From: Mytilus edulis
Taxonomy: Eukaryota
DNA length: 64,000 nt
Assembly (NCBI RefSeq): GCF_963676685.1
Contig: NC_092353.1
Location: forward strand, 5,146,001 to 5,210,000
Direction: 5' to 3'
The position numbers were made by a program, and so were the translations under genes. Shown here one piece after another: positions 33,401 to 46,228 of the stretch. Under the pieces are notes generated by a model. It did no database searches, was not told the origin of the DNA, and saw only the letters and a program-made list of their open reading frames with translations. The first letter of the stretch is position 1. The number at the start of each line of letters is the position of its first letter.

Positions 33401-35881
33401 TCCAGGGGGTGGTCATCCGGTGCCGGTGACCACCCCCTGGGTTTGCAAAAATGGTGCACCATGTACCAAAAAATGGTGCACCTTGAACATTTTGAAAAAT
33501 AAATTCGTCGATCAAATCAATTTGTCTATCGTAATCACCAGTCATAAAGTTGTCATTACTTACATTAAGGCTAAATACATGTACCTTGACAGGTATGTTT
33601 ATACAATGAACATGTAATCATCAATCGCTAATTACTTGGTCGATTTCTTTGATGTTAAGGTGTAAAAATGAAGAGACAGTCCTCAATCTTAGATGTTTTT
33701 AGCAGGTAATTTATACTTTTTTTACATTACTTTTATCTAAATTTTTAAAGTTTGTATAATAACTTTTCTCGACCAATAATATTTTTTTTACTGTGATGCC
33801 AGAGACATATAATACATGTATATGATGCCAAAATTCAAAAATAATTTTAAAGTTTAAAAGTCACATAAATATTCTATATTGAATTAATACCCCGTTCCAT
33901 CATCTGTTTGTCTAAAAGTTTCGTTCATTCCAATTTTTTAGTAACTTATACCCTCTTTCCTTCAGGAAACGCCACAAATCAGCCCCCTCTGAAGTACATA
34001 TATATGTACCAACGACTTGTAATGGACCTAGCATTGATACGAATAAAAGTGATCAGATTAAAGAAACAACCCCCGGCTTGCATATAAGTACAAACGACAT
34101 TGGTTTTGTAAAACAACCAACACGTAAATTAACAAACGAAGAGAAATTTAATTTGATAAGAAATCATTTCCAACCTGGAATAAACTATAACTTTCCTATA
34201 CAAAAATATGCAGGAAAGAACAGACTGTTTCAGCTGAATTGGCTAAATCGCTATGATGGGCTAGTGTACTCACCTTCACAAGAAGGAGCTTACTGCATAT
34301 ACTGTGCTCTGTTTGTGGTTGATAGTTTGGGAACATTATCATGCAAACCACTAACAGATTTGGCACATGCAAAGGACTACTGATATTCAAACATGTATTG
34401 ATAAAGCAATGAATGAACGTATAAAAGCAAACAGAACTGTTTTGAAATCTATATGCAAGTGTGTTTTGCTTTGTGGCAAACAGAATCTTCCTATAAGGGG
34501 CCATAAAAAAAAATTTAATTTAAGATTTCAAAAGGTGACCACCCCCTAATAAATTCCTGGATCCGCCCCTGCTAATCATTTAAGTTTAATTTCATGGGCA
34601 ATGAAAATCCCATTTATCTGTTATCTTCAAAACACTGCTCATTTACAACTTACAAGCCCCCCAAGGAGCAATTTGAAGGCCTTGCGCAATCAGTTTCTTT
34701 GTTGAATTAATGAGATGAAACATTGAACTCTAATTTAAAAATATGAGCTAACCTGGGAAAAATCATTAAAGCCCTGATATTACATCTCAAAACTTGAGAA
34801 TTTTTGTAGGATTGTAAGAAAAATTTACTTGTAAGTAAATTTTTGAGAAAATTAAAGGGAGATTATTTAAACATTATTTATTAACTTATGGTAGCACAAT
34901 ACAAAGATTTTTTTACTTCCAATCACTAACCTTTGAAATGCTGTAACTTTCTTATGAATGCATAGAAAATAACAAAAGAGGTATATACAGATAGATAAAA
35001 GATAATTCTTTTAAATGAATGCAATATTTTTATTATGCAATCATTATGTAATCAATTATTATGTAATTAGTTGCAAAATGTGGATAAGTTCACTTGAATG
35101 AATTTAGCTCTATCATCTTTTTAACTATACAGAAAATTTTAACGAAATCTTAATCAACACATCATGGGCTTCAAAAGGGTGTCTCAGATTGTCTCTATGG
35201 TATTACATTCTCTCATAAATCTCTAATTAGTGTAAACATCCTAACCACATAAAAGAAGATAATGTTTAATTAGGTGTAAAATTTGTTCTATACATTCTAT
35301 CTGAAATCTGAGACACCCTTTTGTAGATAATGGCCATAAGAACAACATATAATAAAATCGACCCTCTAGGGATACCTATGAAGAAGCTAATTTCATTTGA
35401 AAGTGGAAATTTGGTGAAAAATATTTTAGACACAGTTAATATTATAATTGGTTACATAATTGTTGCATAATACTAACATTGCATTAATTTGAAAGAGTAA
35501 TCTGTTAGCTATCCAAAACCAGAGACATATATTATATGTCTCTGCCAAAACTAACACTTTTATAAATTTTCAAGCATTATTAAGAAAGTTACAGCATTTT
35601 AAAACTTGGGAGTTGGAGTTATAAAATCTTTGTATTGTGCTACCTTAAGTGTGTATTTTTTTTTTACTTCTTCAAGTAAATAAAAATACTTGTACAAGTA
35701 GTACCCCCGACTGTTTATCAGCGCCTCCCCCTTTTTCTCAAACTGATTCTCTTCTGACACAATACTTTTTTTTCTAGGTAAGGACGAGTCGGTTTCATCA
35801 TTTAGAGTAACATTGTTTAAAAAATTGATTATTTATGTGTAAGCTTTGTGTTAGATTAGATGTGTTCACCTGCTTCGCCAT
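27460..35881 (-). CDS. AKIP1: A-kinase-interacting protein 1 homologue, 5 coding exons, ~157 aa
   Basis: Minus-strand exons 35881-35870 (MAKQ), 31547-31413, 30120-30040, 28354-28253 and 27603-27460, all phase 0 with GT..AG. Motifs RAASRKVNW, DAFSTIVQFMSHTSRQCKKYY and C-terminal PGTYSVTAG...HVVHVDKGQSVDLDF match the AKIP1 family as I recall it. The 12-nt first exon is the least certain. Confidence 0.82.
27721..27945. mobile_element. MITE
   Basis: TIR ggggtctcatagggg / ccccaatgagaccc, with internal tcccg repeats. Confidence 0.65.
28649..28800. mobile_element. MITE of the CAGG(G/C)GCGGATCCAG family with 5-bp TSD AGAAC
   Basis: TIR caggcgcggatccag / ctggatccgcccccg, flanked on both sides by agaac. 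Confidence 0.8.
30164..30746. mobile_element. MITE
   Basis: TIR aaggagtaggtcaggtaag / cttactggacctactcctt. Confidence 0.7.
33391..34571 (+). mobile_element. Internally deleted hAT-superfamily DNA transposon (ZMYM1/PRKRIR-like transposase remnant), 5-bp TSD CTAAT
   Basis: TIR cagaggcggatccagg / cctggatccgcccctg. Remnant ORFs 34078-34549 encode a TTF-type Zn finger (RLFQLNWLNRYDGLVYSPSQEGAYCIYCALF) and a DUF4371-like NRTVLKSICKCVLLCGKQNLPIRGH. No catalytic or dimerisation part remains. Confidence 0.8.
34890..35644. mobile_element. Non-autonomous Kolobok-like element (GG...CC termini, TTAA-type target)
   Basis: TIR ggtagcacaatacaaagatttt / aaaatctttgtattgtgctacc. Flanks are ttat (left) and ttaa (right). 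Confidence 0.7.
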
Positions 35882-36020: not shown

Positions 36021-37038
36021 TTTTTTTCTGGCACTATCATAGGTGGATCCAAGTAGGCCCTGAGGGGCACGGCTGCCCTTTTGTTGGATAAAATTTAGTT
36101 GGTAAATAATTCTATTTCCGTTGCAGTTGATCCCAATACGTATTTTATCGAAGTTGGCATTATGTCGATTGTTAAGTCAAATGAGTCGAGCATAGCGCAT
36201 GATGAGAGCGGACGTGAAAATTTTTGCAGAGACAATCCTTCAACATCATTGAAATTTATTGTTTTGTCAAATTGATTTCATGGATAAATACTATTATCCT
36301 TAAATCGTATATTTTATCATTTGTATTATATTTTTTTGTTGAGAGAGGTTTCGGCAGATAATTTCAGGTTTGTTTGAGACATGTAGTCAGATGGAATCCA
36401 TCAGTAGTTTCCATGTGGGAAACTATCAGACCAATCTATTTGATGTTTGAAGGTTTTAGCTGTTCCCCTAATCGATCGGTAGTTTCTTTCCGAGATCCTT
36501 ATCATAGGATTTTCGGCTTTCCTCTATCAGGAATACAGCTGGGCATTTAGCGGTATCGGTTTGATTCCAAGTATGTCCTCTCCGGTTTCCCGTTCGTTGT
36601 CTAGGCATTTGTGCGGCATCCGGGGTGACCGTATCCTTTATTTTGTATATGTTTTTTTATATTATGCATTTTTTTTTTTGAGGATGAGCAAGTCAGGTGA
36701 GTGTGTGTGTTTGTATGCTTTATTACATTGTACTTATTGTTTTGGGGAAGGTTAACTTTCTGGTAGTAAGACCCGTCACGGCCAGGCAGTGAAACTGGAT
36801 AGGCAAATGCTCACATTAAATCTGTACCGATACAGTGTGCTAAATGTCTTCCCTTTTACACCACAACCCAGGGTGGTGCTCCTATTAAAGGAGGGAGATA
36901 CAGAACATACATTAATTTCTATGTTTCGGACGAAATTTTCAGCCTTAAGGTGGTATAGGAGTTTAAATTTTCGCGCCTTCTGCGCAAGAAGTTGCGCATC
37001 TGATATCGACATTCGATCTGTTGTCGTAAATGAAATAC

Positions 37039-37251: not shown

Positions 37252-37260
37252 TTCCTCCCC
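37252..37260 (-). other. Polypurine tract
   Basis: Minus strand GGGGAGGAA directly abuts the 3' LTR. Confidence 0.85.
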
Positions 37261-37402: not shown

Positions 37403-38869
37403 TTAATTTATATTATACAGTTGACTGGCATTCCGAGTTGTCACCCTAGCTATTTCCTCGGAGTGTACGTCAAACATGGATGCGAGCTTCCAGATGATTT
37501 CCTTAAGTAGTCCAGGAGATGCCTCATTGTGTCCTTGAGGTTTAAGATAGGGTGAATCGGTCTCCAAAACTAGATCCTCCAACTTCATCTCACAAACGGT
37601 TGCTCTATATCCTGGATACTTGTTATCCATGAGTAGGAACGGAGAGATACCAAATTTACCGTTTGGAAACATGGCTTTACATTGTCTGTATTCTTCAGTG
37701 TCACCATTAAAACAATGCCAATGTATTGGATGATCTTCCTCTAGGAAATTGGTTAATGAATCCCTGCACATATTCATTATTTTCTTGTCTCCCCTGCAAT
37801 GAATCACCACAGGAAGATGTTGCCTCTTAGCTAGTTTAAGCTGCTCCTCAAATACGTGGACCTGTTTCTTGAGTTCTTTGCTATTTGGTTTATCAGAGGA
37901 GTCTAACCCACATTCTCCAACTGCAATCATTCTGTTCACACAGATTAACATCTCTAAATCGGTAATCCATGAACTCAGTACACTCATCTCCTCCCCCTTC
38001 ACTATCCGTGGATGTATACCAGCAGTACTTCTTATACGTCGATCTCTCCTGATTTCTCCCATCTCTTCTATTGTTGGCCAGCGTCTTGGGAAGGCATAAT
38101 TAGCTATCAGATGTCTTATTTGGTATACTGATTCTCCATCTTTCCATTTGTAGATCGGTAAGCCAGAAAATCTGGCTTGTTGTTTCATCTTATCCAAATG
38201 GAAATGAGAATCAGTAACCATAATAGCCTTTTGGATACTGCATTGATAGAGGGATATTTCCTTTTCAAATGTAATAAGATTTTCGGCATCCTCAGTTCCT
38301 TTTAATAATAAAGCCAAAATTTTCCAATGTACCAAAGAATATATTGCAGATGGAGGAAATACAGCATGAATGACTTCCACATCAAATCTGTTTTTTTTAT
38401 TGTAGAAATTCAATAAGGGTATATCTGTCCAATGGAATACAGCTGATTGACATTGTTTAAAGACAGCTTCTGTTCGTACATACTCCACCAGATGATCAAG
38501 GGTCTTTTTGTCATAGCGCTGGCAAAGTTCCAATAGGAGACCATTCATCAATTCTGTCCATACTGACTGGTACTCTTCTTTGAAAATATTATCAGCAATA
38601 TTGCAGTTGTGGAGTTCAAGGCAATGATTTTCTAACATCTTGTTCTGACCAAATTGTTTATGGCAAGTCCAACATGCAGTTAGTGGATTAGTGTACCAGG
38701 GCAAATGTTGGTGAAATACATGCCTTCTTACATTAGTGAAACGACCTGGACATACCGGACAGAGTCTTGCCTTACTCAGATTCCTACTACTGCCTTTTAT
38801 CCTGGTATCTTCCTCCAATCTTTCAGGGATTTCACCATCAAATGGACCATAATCAAGCTCATCCTCCAT
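37403..38869 (-). CDS. Retrotransposon ORF3: two C2H2 zinc fingers plus a TatD-family metal-dependent DNase (488 aa)
   Basis: N-terminal CPVC...HVFHQH and CWTC...HCLELH fingers. TatD motifs DSHFHLD, GIHP, AVGECGLD, PVVIHCR, HWHCFNG and LVLETDSPY are all intact (domain ~38221-37403). Intronless and inside the LTRs. Confidence 0.93.
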   Translation of the reverse strand: MEDELDYGPFDGEIPERLEEDTRIKGSSRNLSKARLCPVCPGRFTNVRRHVFHQHLPWYTNPLTACWTCHKQFGQNKMLENHCLELHNCNIADNIFKEEYQSVWTELMNGLLLELCQRYDKKTLDHLVEYVRTEAVFKQCQSAVFHWTDIPLLNFYNKKNRFDVEVIHAVFPPSAIYSLVHWKILALLLKGTEDAENLITFEKEISLYQCSIQKAIMVTDSHFHLDKMKQQARFSGLPIYKWKDGESVYQIRHLIANYAFPRRWPTIEEMGEIRRDRRIRSTAGIHPRIVKGEEMSVLSSWITDLEMLICVNRMIAVGECGLDSSDKPNSKELKKQVHVFEEQLKLAKRQHLPVVIHCRGDKKIMNMCRDSLTNFLEEDHPIHWHCFNGDTEEYRQCKAMFPNGKFGISPFLLMDNKYPGYRATVCEMKLEDLVLETDSPYLKPQGHNEASPGLLKEIIWKLASMFDVHSEEIARVTTRNASQLYNIN

Positions 38870-38936
38870 ACTTAAAATAAATTAACGAACATGTAAATAT
38901 ATACATAATAATCCTATTTACACTATTTCAAAATAT

Positions 38937-41900: not shown

Positions 41901-43523
41901 CTTTGGCAAAGGAAACACGTCCTTAGTTGTCACTTTATTAAGGGGACGAAAATCAATACAGTACCTCAGACTGCCGTCCTTCTTTCTTACTAAAACAGGA
42001 CAGGAACACCAATCTGAAATAGAAGGTTTAATAACCCCCTTATCTAACATTTGACTAAGATGTTTTTCTTCTTCATTTTCAAATTTCAGTGGAGTTCTAC
42101 GCATTTGTTGTTTAATTGCAGCTGCCTCCCCTGTGTGAATTCGATGTTTAATATCCCCATTAAACAATCCCAGATCCATGTCGCCTTTAGAAAAAATATT
42201 TTGAAATTCAATGAGTACTTCAGCAATCTTTATGCTACGATCTATGTCAAAATCTTTTACTGTTCGAGTATACAAATCTTTTAGGTGTTCTGGAATCTTA
42301 GAATTGAGTTCTTTTAATTTGTTTAGTTTATTTACAGAATTTCCATCTTTTAGTATAGTACGAATTTCTGTGGACGGTTTGACAGAAAATCTGTCACCTT
42401 TGAGCGGTTTGACAGAAAATCTGTCACCTTGAGGCGGACTGACAGAAAATCTGTCACCTTGGGAAGGATTGACAGAAAATCTGTCACCTTGGGACGGACT
42501 GACAGAAAATCTGTCACCTTGAGGCGGACTGACAGAAAATCTGTCACCTTGGGATGGACCAGCAGAAACCCTGTCACCTACACGTACCTTTTCCAATGTC
42601 TCGAAATTACCAGTTGGCGAACTGACAGAAAATCTGTCACTTATGTTTTCTGACGTTTTACACGAATTTGCATTATCGACATTGACAGAAACTCTGTCAC
42701 TATGTACTTCGGGGTCTTCAGCCAAATCACCCTGATCAGTTACAACATTGTATATCTCCATACCAATACCAAATTTATGACCTCCTTTCAATGTGATAAA
42801 AGTGTCTGTGTCATTTCGAAATACAGCCTTCACGGATTCATCCTTAGCAATTAAAGCATTTGGGGACAGAAGACCTTTTAAATTGGATTTCGGCTGAATG
42901 ATGATATCATCTGCTTGGGGATGATCAATTTCCATATCAACTATTTTTAAACTATGAGGTGGCACAACTGTTTTCTTTTTTATACTAATCCTGTATAAGT
43001 TTATTTCTTCTCCCTCGTTCCCAACAAAACAGACCGCTGGTATAGCCTCATTGTTTATGTGGACTGTGTAGTTTGCCATATCAATAACTGCTCCAAATTT
43101 CTCCAAGAAATCAATACCCAGAATGATATTATCATTTATGTTAGCAGTTACAAACCTCCATTTTGATTTTAACTTCCCTATTTCGATAGGTATCTCCTCT
43201 GTATATCTAGCATCAATTTTAGAATTTTTTCCAGCTCCTCGCAAAACTAAATGTTCCTTTAGTTTAATTGTTGACTGTAAAAGTGGTAAAATTGAAGTAC
43301 TCAAAACAGATATTTGTGCTGCACTATCTATTACAGCCTTAAATGTTCTTCCTAAAATTTTCATCTCAATGAACAAAGTTTTTGATTTTTTGCTTTTATC
43401 AAATGAAAAAATTTCTTGAATCGAAAACTTCTGTTCTTGACCAGACATTTCTGTTGGCGGTTGGCCTGTATCATCTGAAAAGGTCAAGGATTGGCCTACA
43501 TCCTTGGCCCTGAGTCGTTTAAA
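38937..43523 (-). CDS. pol: Pol polyprotein (aspartic protease, RT, RNase H, integrase), expressed by -1 frameshift from gag
   Basis: Protease VIDSAA. RT LPFGLCNSPATF and YLDD. RNase H LDTDAS...ELLA...RTDH. Integrase HHCC, HLD..HTDQG..GQVER and WKGPY. The ORF has no stops. Confidence 0.95.
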   Translation of the reverse strand, partial: FKRLRAKDVGQSLTFSDDTGQPPTEMSGQEQKFSIQEIFSFDKSKKSKTLFIEMKILGRTFKAVIDSAAQISVLSTSILPLLQSTIKLKEHLVLRGAGKNSKIDARYTEEIPIEIGKLKSKWRFVTANINDNIILGIDFLEKFGAVIDMANYTVHINNEAIPAVCFVGNEGEEINLYRISIKKKTVVPPHSLKIVDMEIDHPQADDIIIQPKSNLKGLLSPNALIAKDESVKAVFRNDTDTFITLKGGHKFGIGMEIYNVVTDQGDLAEDPEVHSDRVSVNVDNANSCKTSENISDRFSVSSPTGNFETLEKVRVGDRVSAGPSQGDRFSVSPPQGDRFSVSPSQGDRFSVNPSQGDRFSVSPPQGDRFSVKPLKGDRFSVKPSTEIRTILKDGNSVNKLNKLKELNSKIPEHLKDLYTRTVKDFDIDRSIKIAEVLIEFQNIFSKGDMDLGLFNGDIKHRIHTGEAAAIKQQMRRTPLKFENEEEKHLSQMLDKGVIKPSISDWCSCPVLVRKKDGSLRYCIDFRPLNKVTTKDVFPLPKIESCMDTLRGSAYMSTLDMAAGYWQIEIDEKDRHKTAFVTKYGLFEHVRLPFGLCNSPATFSRVIQLVLKGLTWKECLAYLDDVIVLGHSFDDHLIKLLHILKRFQYYNLKLKPSKCFLFQKEVKFLGKIVNKDGISVNPENMQTVKSWPRPKKKKELESFLGFTNYHREHIKNYAEIAVSLHKLTGGKSEFVWTEEQENAFEQLKIALVNSSVLAYPDPEATFILDTDASDKTIGAELSQLQDGKERTISFSSKVLTPAQKKYCTTRKELLAIVTFTRQYRHYLLGNQFVVRTDHNSLTWLLNFKNIEGQLARWIEELSQYNMLVQHRPGKKHVNADALSRIPDTLNECNSYLPSIPLNNLPCGGCKYCTRARSQWSTFEEEVDFVKPLTVRAVSIKDVTSTKGKILQPYTENELRDAQKNDIDLSTVIAWLSTDFSPSKQDLQMSSPLVRHLWQSKSQLEFRNGILYYFWDDAVAPRLLFITPRKLRQEMLHLCHDLRSAGHLGQDKTLAKLRHTVYWYGMTMDCKLYVSTCHICNRYKKPLKRAKAELGRYHSGVPFERIHLDILGPLPVTQQNNKYVLVIIDQFTKWLECCPLPNQNAEVVAKALMDSTISRFGCPMELHTDQGKNVDGRVIRQLCDLLEVSKTRTSAYHPASNGQVERYNRIITQLIRCFLKKNQNRWDIHLQQLAGAIRATENRQTGFTPNFMVFGREVNQPIDLVLGQIKERFPDQDICKYVQSLRNSLKDAHDIARDNLKSAQKRQKQDYDLNLNFRKYCVGDIVLKLDTARKVGISPKLKAPWKGPYVVIEVKSPALLKIKDRKREEVVHHDRLKLCIDREIPLWLQRLRNDILGRAENKLERDTNMELEDLYLDILFSGENQNTQNGLNPLSESLTDDLDNNDPFLVSDSLTNNYNNEQIIIKDLHSLIDIPSDLDATLAYDLSQNSLLPNSDDINRDTDKLDNGSKQGQVGRRKRQMPSYLHDYVQ
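42380..42699. repeat. In-frame 30-bp tandem repeat with a palindromic core in the pol PR-RT linker (GDRFSVSPxQ)
   Basis: tgacagaaaatctgtca at 42380, 42410, 42440, 42470, 42500, 42530 and 42623. Variants at ~42560 and 42683. Confidence 0.95.
43478..43523 (-). promoter_or_regulatory. -1 programmed ribosomal frameshift signal
   Basis: T TTA AAC in the gag frame (43523-43517), a ~7-nt spacer, then stem GGCCAAGGAT/ATCCTTGACC. Pol is in the -1 frame and is open from 43541. Confidence 0.85.
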
Positions 43524-45046
43524 GCTTTTGGTGATGGAGATCTATTACGATAGGGAGAACTATTTCTGGGCTTCTTGCAATCCCTACTAAAATGACCTTC
43601 TTCCCCGCAATTGTAGCAATTACCTCTTGCAGGACTATTGTACCTTCTTTGTGGCGAAAAAGCTCGATCTGTTCTTTGTGGTGACCTTGACCTCATATTC
43701 TGACTTACTATGCTCAATACTTTTTTTACCATGATCTTAGTTTCTAATAAATCATCTTCTGTCTTCTGTAATCTTTTCTCGAACACATTCATCTTATTTG
43801 TTCCTTCGTCAGACTTCATAATTGCACGGACTGATGTTTCCTGTGTATCCTCATTCTCATCATTTTGCTCCATAAAAGAAACCCTTTTAATTTCTGCTCT
43901 TCGTGTACCCATTATGACTTTTTGATTCGCCACTGCACTTCGTACATATTGTACCGCTTGATCCAGAGCATCTGGATTTTTGTCCATAGCAGTCAAAGCT
44001 GCACGCTTGTCTACACAACCTTTAAGAAAAGCATCTGTTGCCAAAGTTTGTACGAAATTATCTGGTGTATCCGGGTAGCCATCGGTAGCCAGCTCCTGTG
44101 CTCTTTCTGCAAATTCCTCTAACGATTCCTCTTGCTCTTGCTTAAGATCTTGTAAAAGTCTTCTTACAATGTGTGGCGGTTCCTTTCTACCAAAACGCTC
44201 TTCCATTTTCTTGCATAAGCTTTCATAATTAGTTTGTACTAACTTTGGTCTTGAGCTGTAAAATTTCAAAGCTTTATCTCGCAAACATTCAATCAATTTA
44301 TACAACCTTTGCTCACTCTGCCATTTGCATCTATCAGCTATAGTGCTAAATTGTAGATAATAAGGACGCCAGTCATTTCTGCCATCATATGTTGACATCT
44401 TTGGTGCTGTGGGACCACCATAATCTGAGTGTTTATGATCATTAGCATTATATTTTCCTTTCAATAATTGAACAGGACTACTCTTTTCCTCTTTTTCGGC
44501 TATTACTTTTTCTACTTTAAGCAAAGTTTCTTTCTGCTGTAGTTGAGTCTGAATTTTCTTTGAATATTCATGTATATCTTTAATCTCTTCATTCTGTGAT
44601 TTAATCATTTCTTTCATTTGTTCAATTTGTTCCTGTTTTTGTTTTGTATAAACGTCTCTTTGTTGTTCAAACATAAGCCTCTGTTCTTCTATATGTGCTT
44701 TACTCTGTTCAGAAATTTTCTCTATTTTTGTTTGAAAAGTCTCTGCCATATCATCTCTGGATTTTTCTACCGACAAAATCTTGTGACGTAATGATTCAAT
44801 GGTATTTTTCAGGACCTCTTGACCTTCATCAGACTCCTCTGGGTCCTCAAAACAAATTATTTTCTCATTCAACAGTGCAGTCCACAATGATTGTGGTGCT
44901 TCTGGAATCTCCTTTAAATTATCTAAATTAAGTAATCCGTCTTCTTCTCTCTTTGCAATTATTGCTAAGGCTCTAGTTTCACCTATCTTTTTAATCGCTT
45001 TTAACTGTGTAAAGTTAGCTTTGTTTATATTAATAGGTTTTGCCAT
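43496..45046 (-). CDS. gag: Gag with N-terminal helix-hairpin-helix domain, coiled coil, capsid-like region and CCHC knuckle (~516 aa from first ATG)
   Basis: Starts MAKPININKANFTQLKAIKKIGETRALAIIAKRE. Capsid-like YDGRNDWRPYYLQF...LKQEQEESLEEFAER...FLKG. Zinc knuckle CYNCGEEGHFSRDC. Confidence 0.92.
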   Translation of the reverse strand: MAKPININKANFTQLKAIKKIGETRALAIIAKREEDGLLNLDNLKEIPEAPQSLWTALLNEKIICFEDPEESDEGQEVLKNTIESLRHKILSVEKSRDDMAETFQTKIEKISEQSKAHIEEQRLMFEQQRDVYTKQKQEQIEQMKEMIKSQNEEIKDIHEYSKKIQTQLQQKETLLKVEKVIAEKEEKSSPVQLLKGKYNANDHKHSDYGGPTAPKMSTYDGRNDWRPYYLQFSTIADRCKWQSEQRLYKLIECLRDKALKFYSSRPKLVQTNYESLCKKMEERFGRKEPPHIVRRLLQDLKQEQEESLEEFAERAQELATDGYPDTPDNFVQTLATDAFLKGCVDKRAALTAMDKNPDALDQAVQYVRSAVANQKVIMGTRRAEIKRVSFMEQNDENEDTQETSVRAIMKSDEGTNKMNVFEKRLQKTEDDLLETKIMVKKVLSIVSQNMRSRSPQRTDRAFSPQRRYNSPARGNCYNCGEEGHFSRDCKKPRNSSPYRNRSPSPKALNDSGPRM

Positions 45047-45121: not shown

Positions 45122-45344
45122 TGTCAGTAACACTGACACAATAATATAAATATGCAGTTTATTATTTACTGAATAACAATGTAGCGGCTTGTCAGTAACA
45201 CTGACACAATAATATAAATATGCAGTTTATTATTTACTGAATAACAATGTAGCGGATTGTCAGTAACACTGACACTGTTTTATAACTATGCAATAATTTT
45301 TCAGTGATTAGCCGTATTGCGGAGTGTCAGTAAAACTGACACCA
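45122..45344. repeat. ~68-bp tandem repeat (4 units) with a 17-bp palindrome in the retroelement 5' leader
   Basis: tgtcagtaacactgaca at 45122, 45190 and 45258; tgtcagtaaaactgaca at 45325. Confidence 0.92.
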
Positions 45345-45591
45345 GGAATTTTCCAAATTTTCAAAAATTTTCAAAGTAGATATTTCTATGAAAACAAATG
45401 GATGTATGGGCAATCGGTTATCAGAAATTCTGATATTAAATTTCCATGATTATTATACTCATGAAATATGTAATGTTCTTTTCTATAGGTACAATAACTG
45501 TTTGTTTTCTTTGTTGTGATTTTTCAGTTTTGCCGCCAAAATGTCAGGAAACAATGAATGTCTCGAGTCGATTTAAAGTAAATTCGAACCG

Positions 45592-45604
45592 ACTTCTGAC
45601 ACCA
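45592..45604 (-). other. Primer-binding site complementary to the tRNA-Leu 3' end
   Basis: Minus strand TGGTGTCAGAAGT, one base after the 5' LTR. The plus strand reads ttcgaaccgacttctgacacca, resembling a tRNA-Leu 3' end. Confidence 0.85.
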
Positions 45605-45605
45605 A

Positions 45606-45818
45606 TGTTGTAAAGGTGCAATAATTCGATATACCTTTCCTAATATAAGATGTTGTCTTGGTAGAATATACTGATAGGGCAGGAATCCCAGGGCTGGAGT
45701 TCACCACAAGTGGGTCGTCTGAGCTCCGGATATATTCTGCGAGGTTGCGCAGTAAATACTAACTGAAGTTCCGGTAACAAATCTGGTTGTGGCAATCACT
45801 TTCCGGACATTTACTACA
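45606..45818 (-). repeat. 5' LTR (213 bp)
   Basis: Identical by eye to 37039-37251; followed by the PBS on the minus strand. Confidence 0.97.
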
Positions 45819-46228
45819 ATACTTTGTACCAAGATGAAAATAAAACATAATTCTCTTCATTATGTCCTTCAATTAATCGGGTTCACTTTTTTTATTGAAA
45901 AAAATTCAAATACACATCTTTTTATAATAACATTTGGCAGTGATCACTTCCGGCATGCACGGAAATGCAAAAATGGACACAACAAAAGACGTGGAGATGT
46001 TTACATTGCTCAACGGTGAACTGCTTTTTACAATAACTAACTTGCTGCTCAGAAAATATAGAACATGAGCAGCATTTTGGTGTACTATGAGGCAGTTTCA
46101 CATAAGTCACATACATAGAACGAATCCTCAAACAGTCGTGTTGATCCGTCGACAGAAGAAGAAAAAGGTATAATTTCATGTTTAATGCGACTATCGTAAT
46201 ATCTTTATATGTCGTCTGCCTCCTAGAA

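Follow-up and report, generated by a model that had tools for sequence, protein, structure and literature searches.

The 64,000-nucleotide stretch of Mytilus edulis DNA analysed here (hereafter the window) contains an intact, recently inserted Ty3/Gypsy retrotransposon that encodes a TatD nuclease as its third gene (ORF3). This ORF3 is a real, clade-defining accessory gene, for which the DEDDy-nuclease ORF3s of rotifer elements form the precedent. Its preliminary description as a captured and retained accessory nuclease was supported by its presence in many copies, by an identity of only ~33% to the host gene and by a dN/dS of 0.08. The features of the element are listed below by window position and strand.

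45819..45822, minus strand: target-site duplication GTAT (4 bp), with its second copy at 37035-37038
45606..45818, minus strand: 5' LTR of 213 nt (TG...CA), with the same sequence as the 3' LTR
45592..45604, minus strand: primer-binding site, starting with TGG, one base past the LTR
45457..45459, minus strand: putative splice donor, with the exon end at 45459 and the GT of the intron at 45458 (joint 38870/45459, seen in a single contig of run X1)
45122..45292, no strand assigned: 68-nt tandem repeats of the leader
43496..45046, minus strand: gag, 516 aa, with an N-terminal helix-hairpin-helix (PF12836), Retrotrans_gag and a CCHC knuckle
43517..43523, minus strand: slippery heptamer TTTAAAC inside the gag/pol overlap
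[quoted passage not shown]
38871..38885, minus strand: T-rich tract and AG, a putative splice acceptor, one base 5' of the ORF3 ATG
37403..38869, minus strand: ORF3, 488 aa, with an acidic disordered tail, a zinc-finger/helical domain and a TatD nuclease
38255..38800, minus strand: N-terminal module of ORF3 (aa 24-205), in which a helical bundle packs together with two C2H2-like sites
37412..38215, minus strand: TatD barrel of ORF3 (aa 219-486), with H222, H224, E319, H357, H385, E436 and D438
37252..37260, minus strand: polypurine tract GGGGAGGAA
37039..37251, minus strand: 3' LTR, 213 nt

The LTRs, previously noted as identical, matched at 213/213 nucleotides with a TG start and a CA end, and together with the GTAT duplication this indicates that the insertion is recent. 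All of the hallmarks of a Ty3/Gypsy element were identified, namely LTRs with a target-site duplication, a primer-binding site with a polypurine tract, and the pol domain order. The primer for the primer-binding site is probably tRNA-Leu; the TGG start of this site recurs in seven other LTR-bearing loci, and no tRNA genes were found in the window. Pol lies in the -1 frame relative to gag, with frameshifting probably occurring at TTTAAAC, and a stimulatory hairpin 3' of this site was no stronger than in shuffled sequences (z -1.19). At 1534 aa, the pol of the window copy is longer than that of two other copies (1514 aa), and a 30-nt in-frame tandem repeat (window 42342-42581) is situated between its protease and RT. 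The ComEA-like helix-hairpin-helix (PF12836) forms the start of gag in many families of the clade (window 44900-45046, L049, L077). The stop-free ORF3 of 488 aa, described as lying between pol and the polypurine tract on the gag/pol strand, was confirmed at 38869-37403 of the minus strand, with its ATG 70 nt downstream of the last pol codon and its end about 140 nt from the polypurine tract. A further ORF of the window (33916-34380) had no Pfam match.

The C-terminal part of ORF3 (aa 219-486) was matched by TatD_DNase (PF01026) with an E-value of 3e-42 and a score of 145 bits (cut-off 27), and all five TatD motifs quoted in the preliminary description were found. The AlphaFold model of ORF3 (pLDDT 92; best match to TatD structures E 4e-15) predicts a TIM barrel with the His-x-His, Glu, His, His, Glu-x-Asp metal site. 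The seven metal/catalytic residues were retained in 95/100 aligned homologues and in 12/13 families. At locus L040 (998-2521), which has identical LTRs and an open ORF3, the first metal histidine is gone, and because the first metal motif is degenerate this nuclease may be weakened or dead. No signal peptide or membrane segment was identified in ORF3, the highest 19-residue hydropathy being 1.31 and the first 33 residues being strongly hydrophilic.

Ahead of the barrel, two C2H2 fingers and a linker of ~130 aa had been proposed. Two sites are indeed present, but these are C2H2-like only, with Pfam zf-C2H2 falling under its cut-off (E 0.57 and 3.2), and in place of the linker a folded helical region is predicted, which together with the fingers makes up a single compact domain (aa 24-205, pLDDT 94.8, pTM 0.89). 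Finger 1 has the spacing C-x2-C-x9-H-x4-H, with 9 residues between the Cys and His pairs, and was retained in 15/15 families along with the tryptophan of the last helix; finger 2, with the classical C2H2 Cys-His spacing of 12, was retained in 8/15. For this N-terminal module no Pfam family passed its cut-off, a fold search of 48,161 chains gave nothing significant (best Z 3.0), and Foldseek returned no match at E <= 0.001 in the PDB or BFVD. Fold matches to C2H2 fingers were weak (E > 1), and matches in the Atlas were to unnamed or generic zinc-finger clusters. The module is a domain predicted with confidence, and neither solved structures nor predicted viral ones gave a match to it, which falls short of proving a new fold. 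The disordered N-terminus that precedes it is only about 25 residues long, compared to the long disordered region of TATDN2, and a short acidic motif of this tail was conserved in one subclade. Longer fused forms of ORF3 were not found among 784 candidates, a result that is weak evidence. One homologue of 1117 aa (P0263) possesses a NADAR domain N-terminal to the zinc module and TatD.

The possibility that ORF3 is found only in this copy was examined and dismissed, as at least 92 genome matches to ORF3 and at least 134 to the TatD profile were identified. Sixty of the match loci, picked to span identity and frame-length classes, were taken as 10-kb stretches, and in 53/60 of these TatD loci, gag/pol domains of Gypsy type were situated upstream on the same strand. 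The remaining seven consisted of host-type genes (L071, L085), Helitrons (L061, L086), a Helitron-type locus (L060) and pol-less ORF3 fragments (L045, L087). In a reverse search by pol, which is unbiased towards TatD, the best 49 of 3998 candidates were scored, and a TatD match was situated downstream of pol (by coordinates) in 46/49 of these best-scoring relatives in this Mytilus genome, with the remaining three encoding a related ORF3 with another tail. No TatD was found within the 6 kb read of nine Gypsy loci outside this set, the 3' ends of three of the nine being uninformative because integrase does not follow RNase H in the stretch. A locus that seemed to possess the N-terminal module without TatD turned out to be a truncated copy.

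In a tree of RT, RNase H and integrase (15 families and five outgroups), all 15 families fell into one clade (100/100), which comprises 13 families with TatD and two nested families with a putatively ubiquitin-like tail instead. Trees of TatD and pol were compared for 11/13 TatD families, two others having been missed by the motif pattern, and these agreed for the most part: 6/8 splits were common, with a Mantel r of 0.88 that 0/10000 permutations equalled, while two splits conflicted, both of them weakly supported in the TatD tree. In a later quick tree of all 13 TatD families, the window family was placed beside L037, matching pol. The TatD gene entered the ancestor of a large clade in a single acquisition and has since then mostly been co-inherited with pol. 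Its tree length of 12.5 compared to 6.0 for pol corresponds to evolution about twice as fast.

Homologues with the full ORF3 architecture are numerous, and those that were named derive from four Mytilus species, Crassostrea and Mizuhopecten (as proteins, with the element layout read in one bivalve genome), the near-identical ones among them being from Mytilus. Three gene models of Mytilus coruscus fuse pieces of gag or integrase with parts of ORF3. Two alignment scans of metagenomes for the context of ORF3 outside this genome gave no pattern, single-protein metagenome scans gave none in one and three weak loci in another, and viral contigs gave nine matches of ordinary TatD level.

Neutral evolution of ORF3 across copies, which had been named as an outcome that would speak against retention, was not found. 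Using pairwise Nei-Gojobori counts, in which transition bias is ignored, the TatD region of the window copy differed from that of L031 by 39 synonymous changes over 173 sites and 14 non-synonymous changes over 643 sites, a dN/dS of 0.08, compared to 0.10 for the N-terminal module and 0.06 for both pol and gag. TatD values ranged from 0.06 to 0.12 across 10 copies of the window family, and from 0.07 to 0.26 in pairs of other families with dS > 0.06; two near-identical pairs gave 1.16 and 0.81. When different families are compared, synonymous sites show saturation (pS 0.7-0.8) with the ORF3 frame still open. The TatD of ORF3 is under purifying selection, and the pairwise dN/dS values gave no sign of positive selection. 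The synonymous distance between the window element and L031 and L032 climbs from 0.09 in gag to 0.17 in pol and 0.27 in TatD, which suggests recombination between subfamilies.

Regarding the origin of the nuclease, near-identity to a host TATDN gene was not observed, identity being only ~33% to the best exon of an intron-containing host TATDN2-like gene. In a careful tree of 37 rows, the root of which is approximate because the outgroup does not form one side of a branch, the Gypsy-type TatDs formed one clade (100/98) within a TATDN2-like group (96/96) that also holds host gene L085, nematode and other eukaryotic rows and the TatDs of Helitrons. TATDN1-like, TATDN3-like and bacterial rows fell outside this group, these row labels having been assigned from architecture and source names. 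L085 is a host gene with introns and a long low-complexity first exon, and is TATDN2-like by architecture; among 39 outside sequences it was the top match of a Gypsy TatD HMM, with 232 bits compared to 123 for TATDN1, the score of the TATDN3-like row being lowered because it is without the first motif. A TATDN1 origin was rejected by the AU test (p 0.0002), and grouping with the long-branched TATDN3-like row was not (p 0.06). The donor of the nuclease was most likely a host TATDN2-type gene, an origin which these comparisons support but do not prove. ORF3 resembles host TATDN2 (PF01026; human, PMC10711561; medaka, PMC12709183) in fold, metal ligands and position in the best tree, and from motif position E319, E436 and D438 would correspond to E91, E201 and D203 of the E. 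coli protein and E593, E705 and D707 of the human protein. It differs from host TATDN2 in being intronless, in its location inside LTRs, in its ~33% identity and in having a compact zinc/helical domain in place of a long disordered arm.

Intronless TatD genes with a Cys/His-rich head were also identified on the same strand downstream of two Helitrons whose RepHel occurs with an OTU domain (L061:1001-6582, L086:995-6366), and L060 has the same type of TatD gene, with RepHel absent from the 10 kb read. The Helitron TatDs form their own TATDN2-like branch (97/96). Helitron and Gypsy TatDs are possibly sister branches, as they are in the best tree at 73/92, an arrangement that the test neither shows nor rejects. 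A literature search pairing TatD with Helitron or KptA terms returned no relevant paper.

In the families without TatD (L121:3427-4692, L123:5309-6574, L122:5894-7459), the N-terminal module is kept and a tail of ~70 aa takes the place of the nuclease. The homology of the module to the ORF3 of these families was supported by hhalign (97.7%, E 1.5e-12). The replacement tail had no Pfam match, and its nearest named look-alikes, which we take to be small ubiquitin-fold domains, scored 0.81-0.89, below 0.9; a ubiquitin-like nature of the tail is a lead only. As two families possess this tail instead of TatD, the clade does not depend on the nuclease, and as the module is shared with them, ORF3 is most readily understood as a conserved adaptor, the C-terminal part of which is exchangeable. 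Among the third genes of outgroup Gypsy elements (L127:3219-4067, L133:3292-4356, L129:3244-5849), two encode C2H2 zinc-finger proteins and one is a coiled-coil, env-looking frame pair, its likeness to env having been judged by eye. The plain zinc-finger third genes of the outgroups suggest an order in which the finger gene preceded the nuclease, the latter being added to it. Other added domains were also identified in the clade, namely a Tpt1/KptA RNA 2'-phosphotransferase (PF01885) between gag and protease in two families (L076:914-6376, L078:3151-8163, L062:807-3308) and a PHD or PHD-like finger at the end of the integrase in all seven families of one subclade (L062, L074, L076, L077, L078, L079, L121, L122).

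The env genes of retroviruses and errantiviruses are expressed by splicing, and a similar arrangement may apply to ORF3. One contig of run X1, the RNA status of which is a guess, connects 45459 with 38870. The 6588 nt left out between the two have GT-AG ends on the element strand, and the joint falls one base ahead of the ORF3 ATG; this single contig has a depth of 4.9, a short side of 30 letters and 90% likeness, and its leader diverges from the window copy beyond 45524. Depth in X1 was 27.8 over ORF3 compared to 0-5 over pol. Coverage of the element was more even in run X2, in which the joint was not seen, and two confirmed RNA runs yielded 14 and 0 reads. An AG was found immediately 5' of the first ORF3 ATG in 12/16 families compared to 42/398 in-frame pol ATGs, although the families are related and do not amount to 16 independent trials; in L052, one of the 12, the AG lies in purine-rich sequence and is doubtful, and in the other four families an AG lies within 11 nt of the ATG. 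These observations support, but do not prove, the production of ORF3 from its own spliced subgenomic mRNA in the manner of env. Pol and ORF3 are separated by a stop in 14 families. In one other family, pol continues in frame from the integrase-PHD region into ORF3 in 7/8 copies with the junction found (nine examined), with L079 (5596-9009) containing an IN-PHD-TatD frame of 1138 aa. A CAG acceptor-like site before the ORF3 methionine is kept in the read-through copies, which are L080, L081, L083, L084, L090 and L124 beside L079.

Human TATDN2 breaks down the RNA of R-loops and hairpins but hardly acts on plain hybrids, and it no longer binds when the N-terminal arm is missing, RNA reportedly being preferred over DNA by its subfamily (available text of PMC10711561), and medaka tatdn2 shields primordial germ cells from R-loop damage (available text of PMC12709183). 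Because of these roles of the human and medaka proteins, the reading favoured here, with a probability of roughly 0.45, is that the nuclease of ORF3 is steered by its N-terminal module to the R-loops and left-over hybrids of the element itself. The zinc/helical module would stand in for the long TATDN2 arm needed for R-loop binding and would bring the TatD barrel to the element's own nucleic acid, where this metal-dependent 3' nuclease would strip the RNA strand from R-loops at transcribed copies and would likewise remove the RNA of left-over RNA:DNA replication intermediates. The outcome would be less DNA damage and fewer alarm signals from an active element in germ cells, and it is proposed that fitness would thus be raised without the nuclease being essential. 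However, the substrate is borrowed from human TATDN2, with other TatDs being DNA exo/AP nucleases, the element retains its own RNase H, and TatD is lacking in two nested families, as is the first metal histidine in L040. The persistence of the N-terminal module where TatD has been replaced is also compatible with a trans-acting counter-defence, a reading that we consider doubtful but deserving of serious attention, in which the module would be an adaptor that attaches to a complex used by the host for silencing or sensing (piRNA pathway, chromatin or nucleic-acid sensors) and would present a swappable C-terminal effector. That effector would be either a nuclease by which guide RNA or nascent RNA is trimmed, or a decoy resembling ubiquitin. 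The apparent mRNA of ORF3's own, the greater tree length of TatD, the acidic tail motif conserved in one subclade and the ubiquitin-fold look-alikes (as a lead) would agree with such a role, but positive selection is not indicated by pairwise dN/dS, the ubiquitin-like assignment is below 0.9 with no Pfam match and the host partner is hypothetical.

The read-through from pol into ORF3 in one family and the Tpt1/KptA phosphotransferase in the polyprotein at three loci of the clade point to another role, which is unlikely, namely that of an enzyme packaged with Gag/Pol which would trim cDNA 3' ends, remove primer RNA or cut abasic sites prior to integration. AP-endonuclease and 3' exonuclease activities are reported for TATDN1/3 and E. 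coli TatD in the available text of PMC12709183; on the other hand, a stop lies between pol and ORF3 in 14 families, X1 depth is higher over ORF3 than over pol, and the TATDN2 subfamily reportedly prefers RNA (PMC10711561, available text). R-loop removal, counter-defence and a particle enzyme are partly compatible and not fully exclusive of one another. Neutral carriage, in which a host TATDN retrocopy would have been picked up once by the window element, is effectively excluded. Although ORF3 is intronless and kin to a host gene family, such carriage is refuted by the pol clade, the agreement of TatD and pol trees and dN/dS, and does not fit an open frame with a dN/dS of ~0.1 in 13 families with saturated synonymous sites, or an identity to the host gene of only ~33%. 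Equally, the env position and apparently env-like spliced mRNA might be taken to mean that ORF3 helps the element to move between cells as a substitute for env, yet with a soluble TIM-barrel fold and neither a signal peptide nor a membrane segment, this role too is effectively excluded.

The nearest known counterparts come from bdelloid rotifers, where the LTR retrotransposons Juno and Vesta encode a DEDDy 3'-5' exonuclease as ORF3 (Rodriguez, Kenefick and Arkhipova 2017, PMC5408684, available text); they are further cited in the portions available of PMC6338049, PMC6431247 and PMC5718144. As in Juno and Vesta, the nuclease of the mussel element occupies the env position with catalytic residues intact, and is of a type common to a second class of element (Athena in rotifers, Helitrons in the mussel). 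In contrast, the mussel ORF3 is a TatD TIM barrel rather than a DEDD fold and is fused to a folded domain for which the libraries searched gave no family. Repeated gains are described for the rotifer ORFs in the text available, whereas the mussel TatD is ancestral to a broad clade and tracks pol; its purifying selection is clear, while for the rotifer ORFs the available text of PMC5408684 found that values within the genome did not deviate significantly from neutrality. The gag-pol-ORF3 layout is shared with env-bearing Ty3/Gypsy elements (errantiviruses; PMC13524379, available text), but unlike theirs the mussel ORF3 encodes a predicted soluble enzyme in which a membrane segment is lacking. 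Expression of the third gene by splicing may be a further trait in common. The lineage of the window RT probably belongs to one of the MolGy clades of mollusc Gypsy elements, which are classed by RT/RNase H only (Thomas-Bulle et al. 2018, PMC6238403, available text); neither 'ORF' nor 'nuclease' occurs in the main text of that paper as available. Likewise, TatD does not occur in the available texts of PMC6431247, PMC5718144 and PMC13524379, and a TatD-bearing Gypsy ORF3 is not described in those of PMC10886601, PMC6962438 and PMC5408686. No paper on TatD in Gypsy or other LTR retrotransposons was found in the full-text literature, with Repbase, Dfam and most subscription journals being outside the search.

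A more far-reaching interpretation, offered here as a tentative possibility, is that this is an old and widespread invertebrate Gypsy clade in which ORF3 would be a genuine accessory gene, as the term is used for retroviruses. Such a gene would combine a spliced transcript, an adaptor of undescribed fold and an exchangeable effector (a TATDN2-derived nuclease or a ubiquitin-like domain), and would disarm a defence of the host that relies on R-loops, on small RNAs or on the sensing of RNA:DNA, with the nuclease drawn from a pool shared with Helitrons. A new enzyme class joins the short list of third genes of LTR retrotransposons, and with clear selection, many young copies and sister families with another tail, the retention of ORF3s that are not env becomes testable with one soluble protein. 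A gene labelled 'TATDN2' lies within the Hox cluster of the giant squid beside transposon-like genes (figure legend in the available text of PMC6962438) and may be element-borne. In bivalves, many of the proteins to which the annotation 'TATDN2', 'tatD' or 'YabD' has been given resemble genes of these elements, by which counts of the gene family would be inflated.
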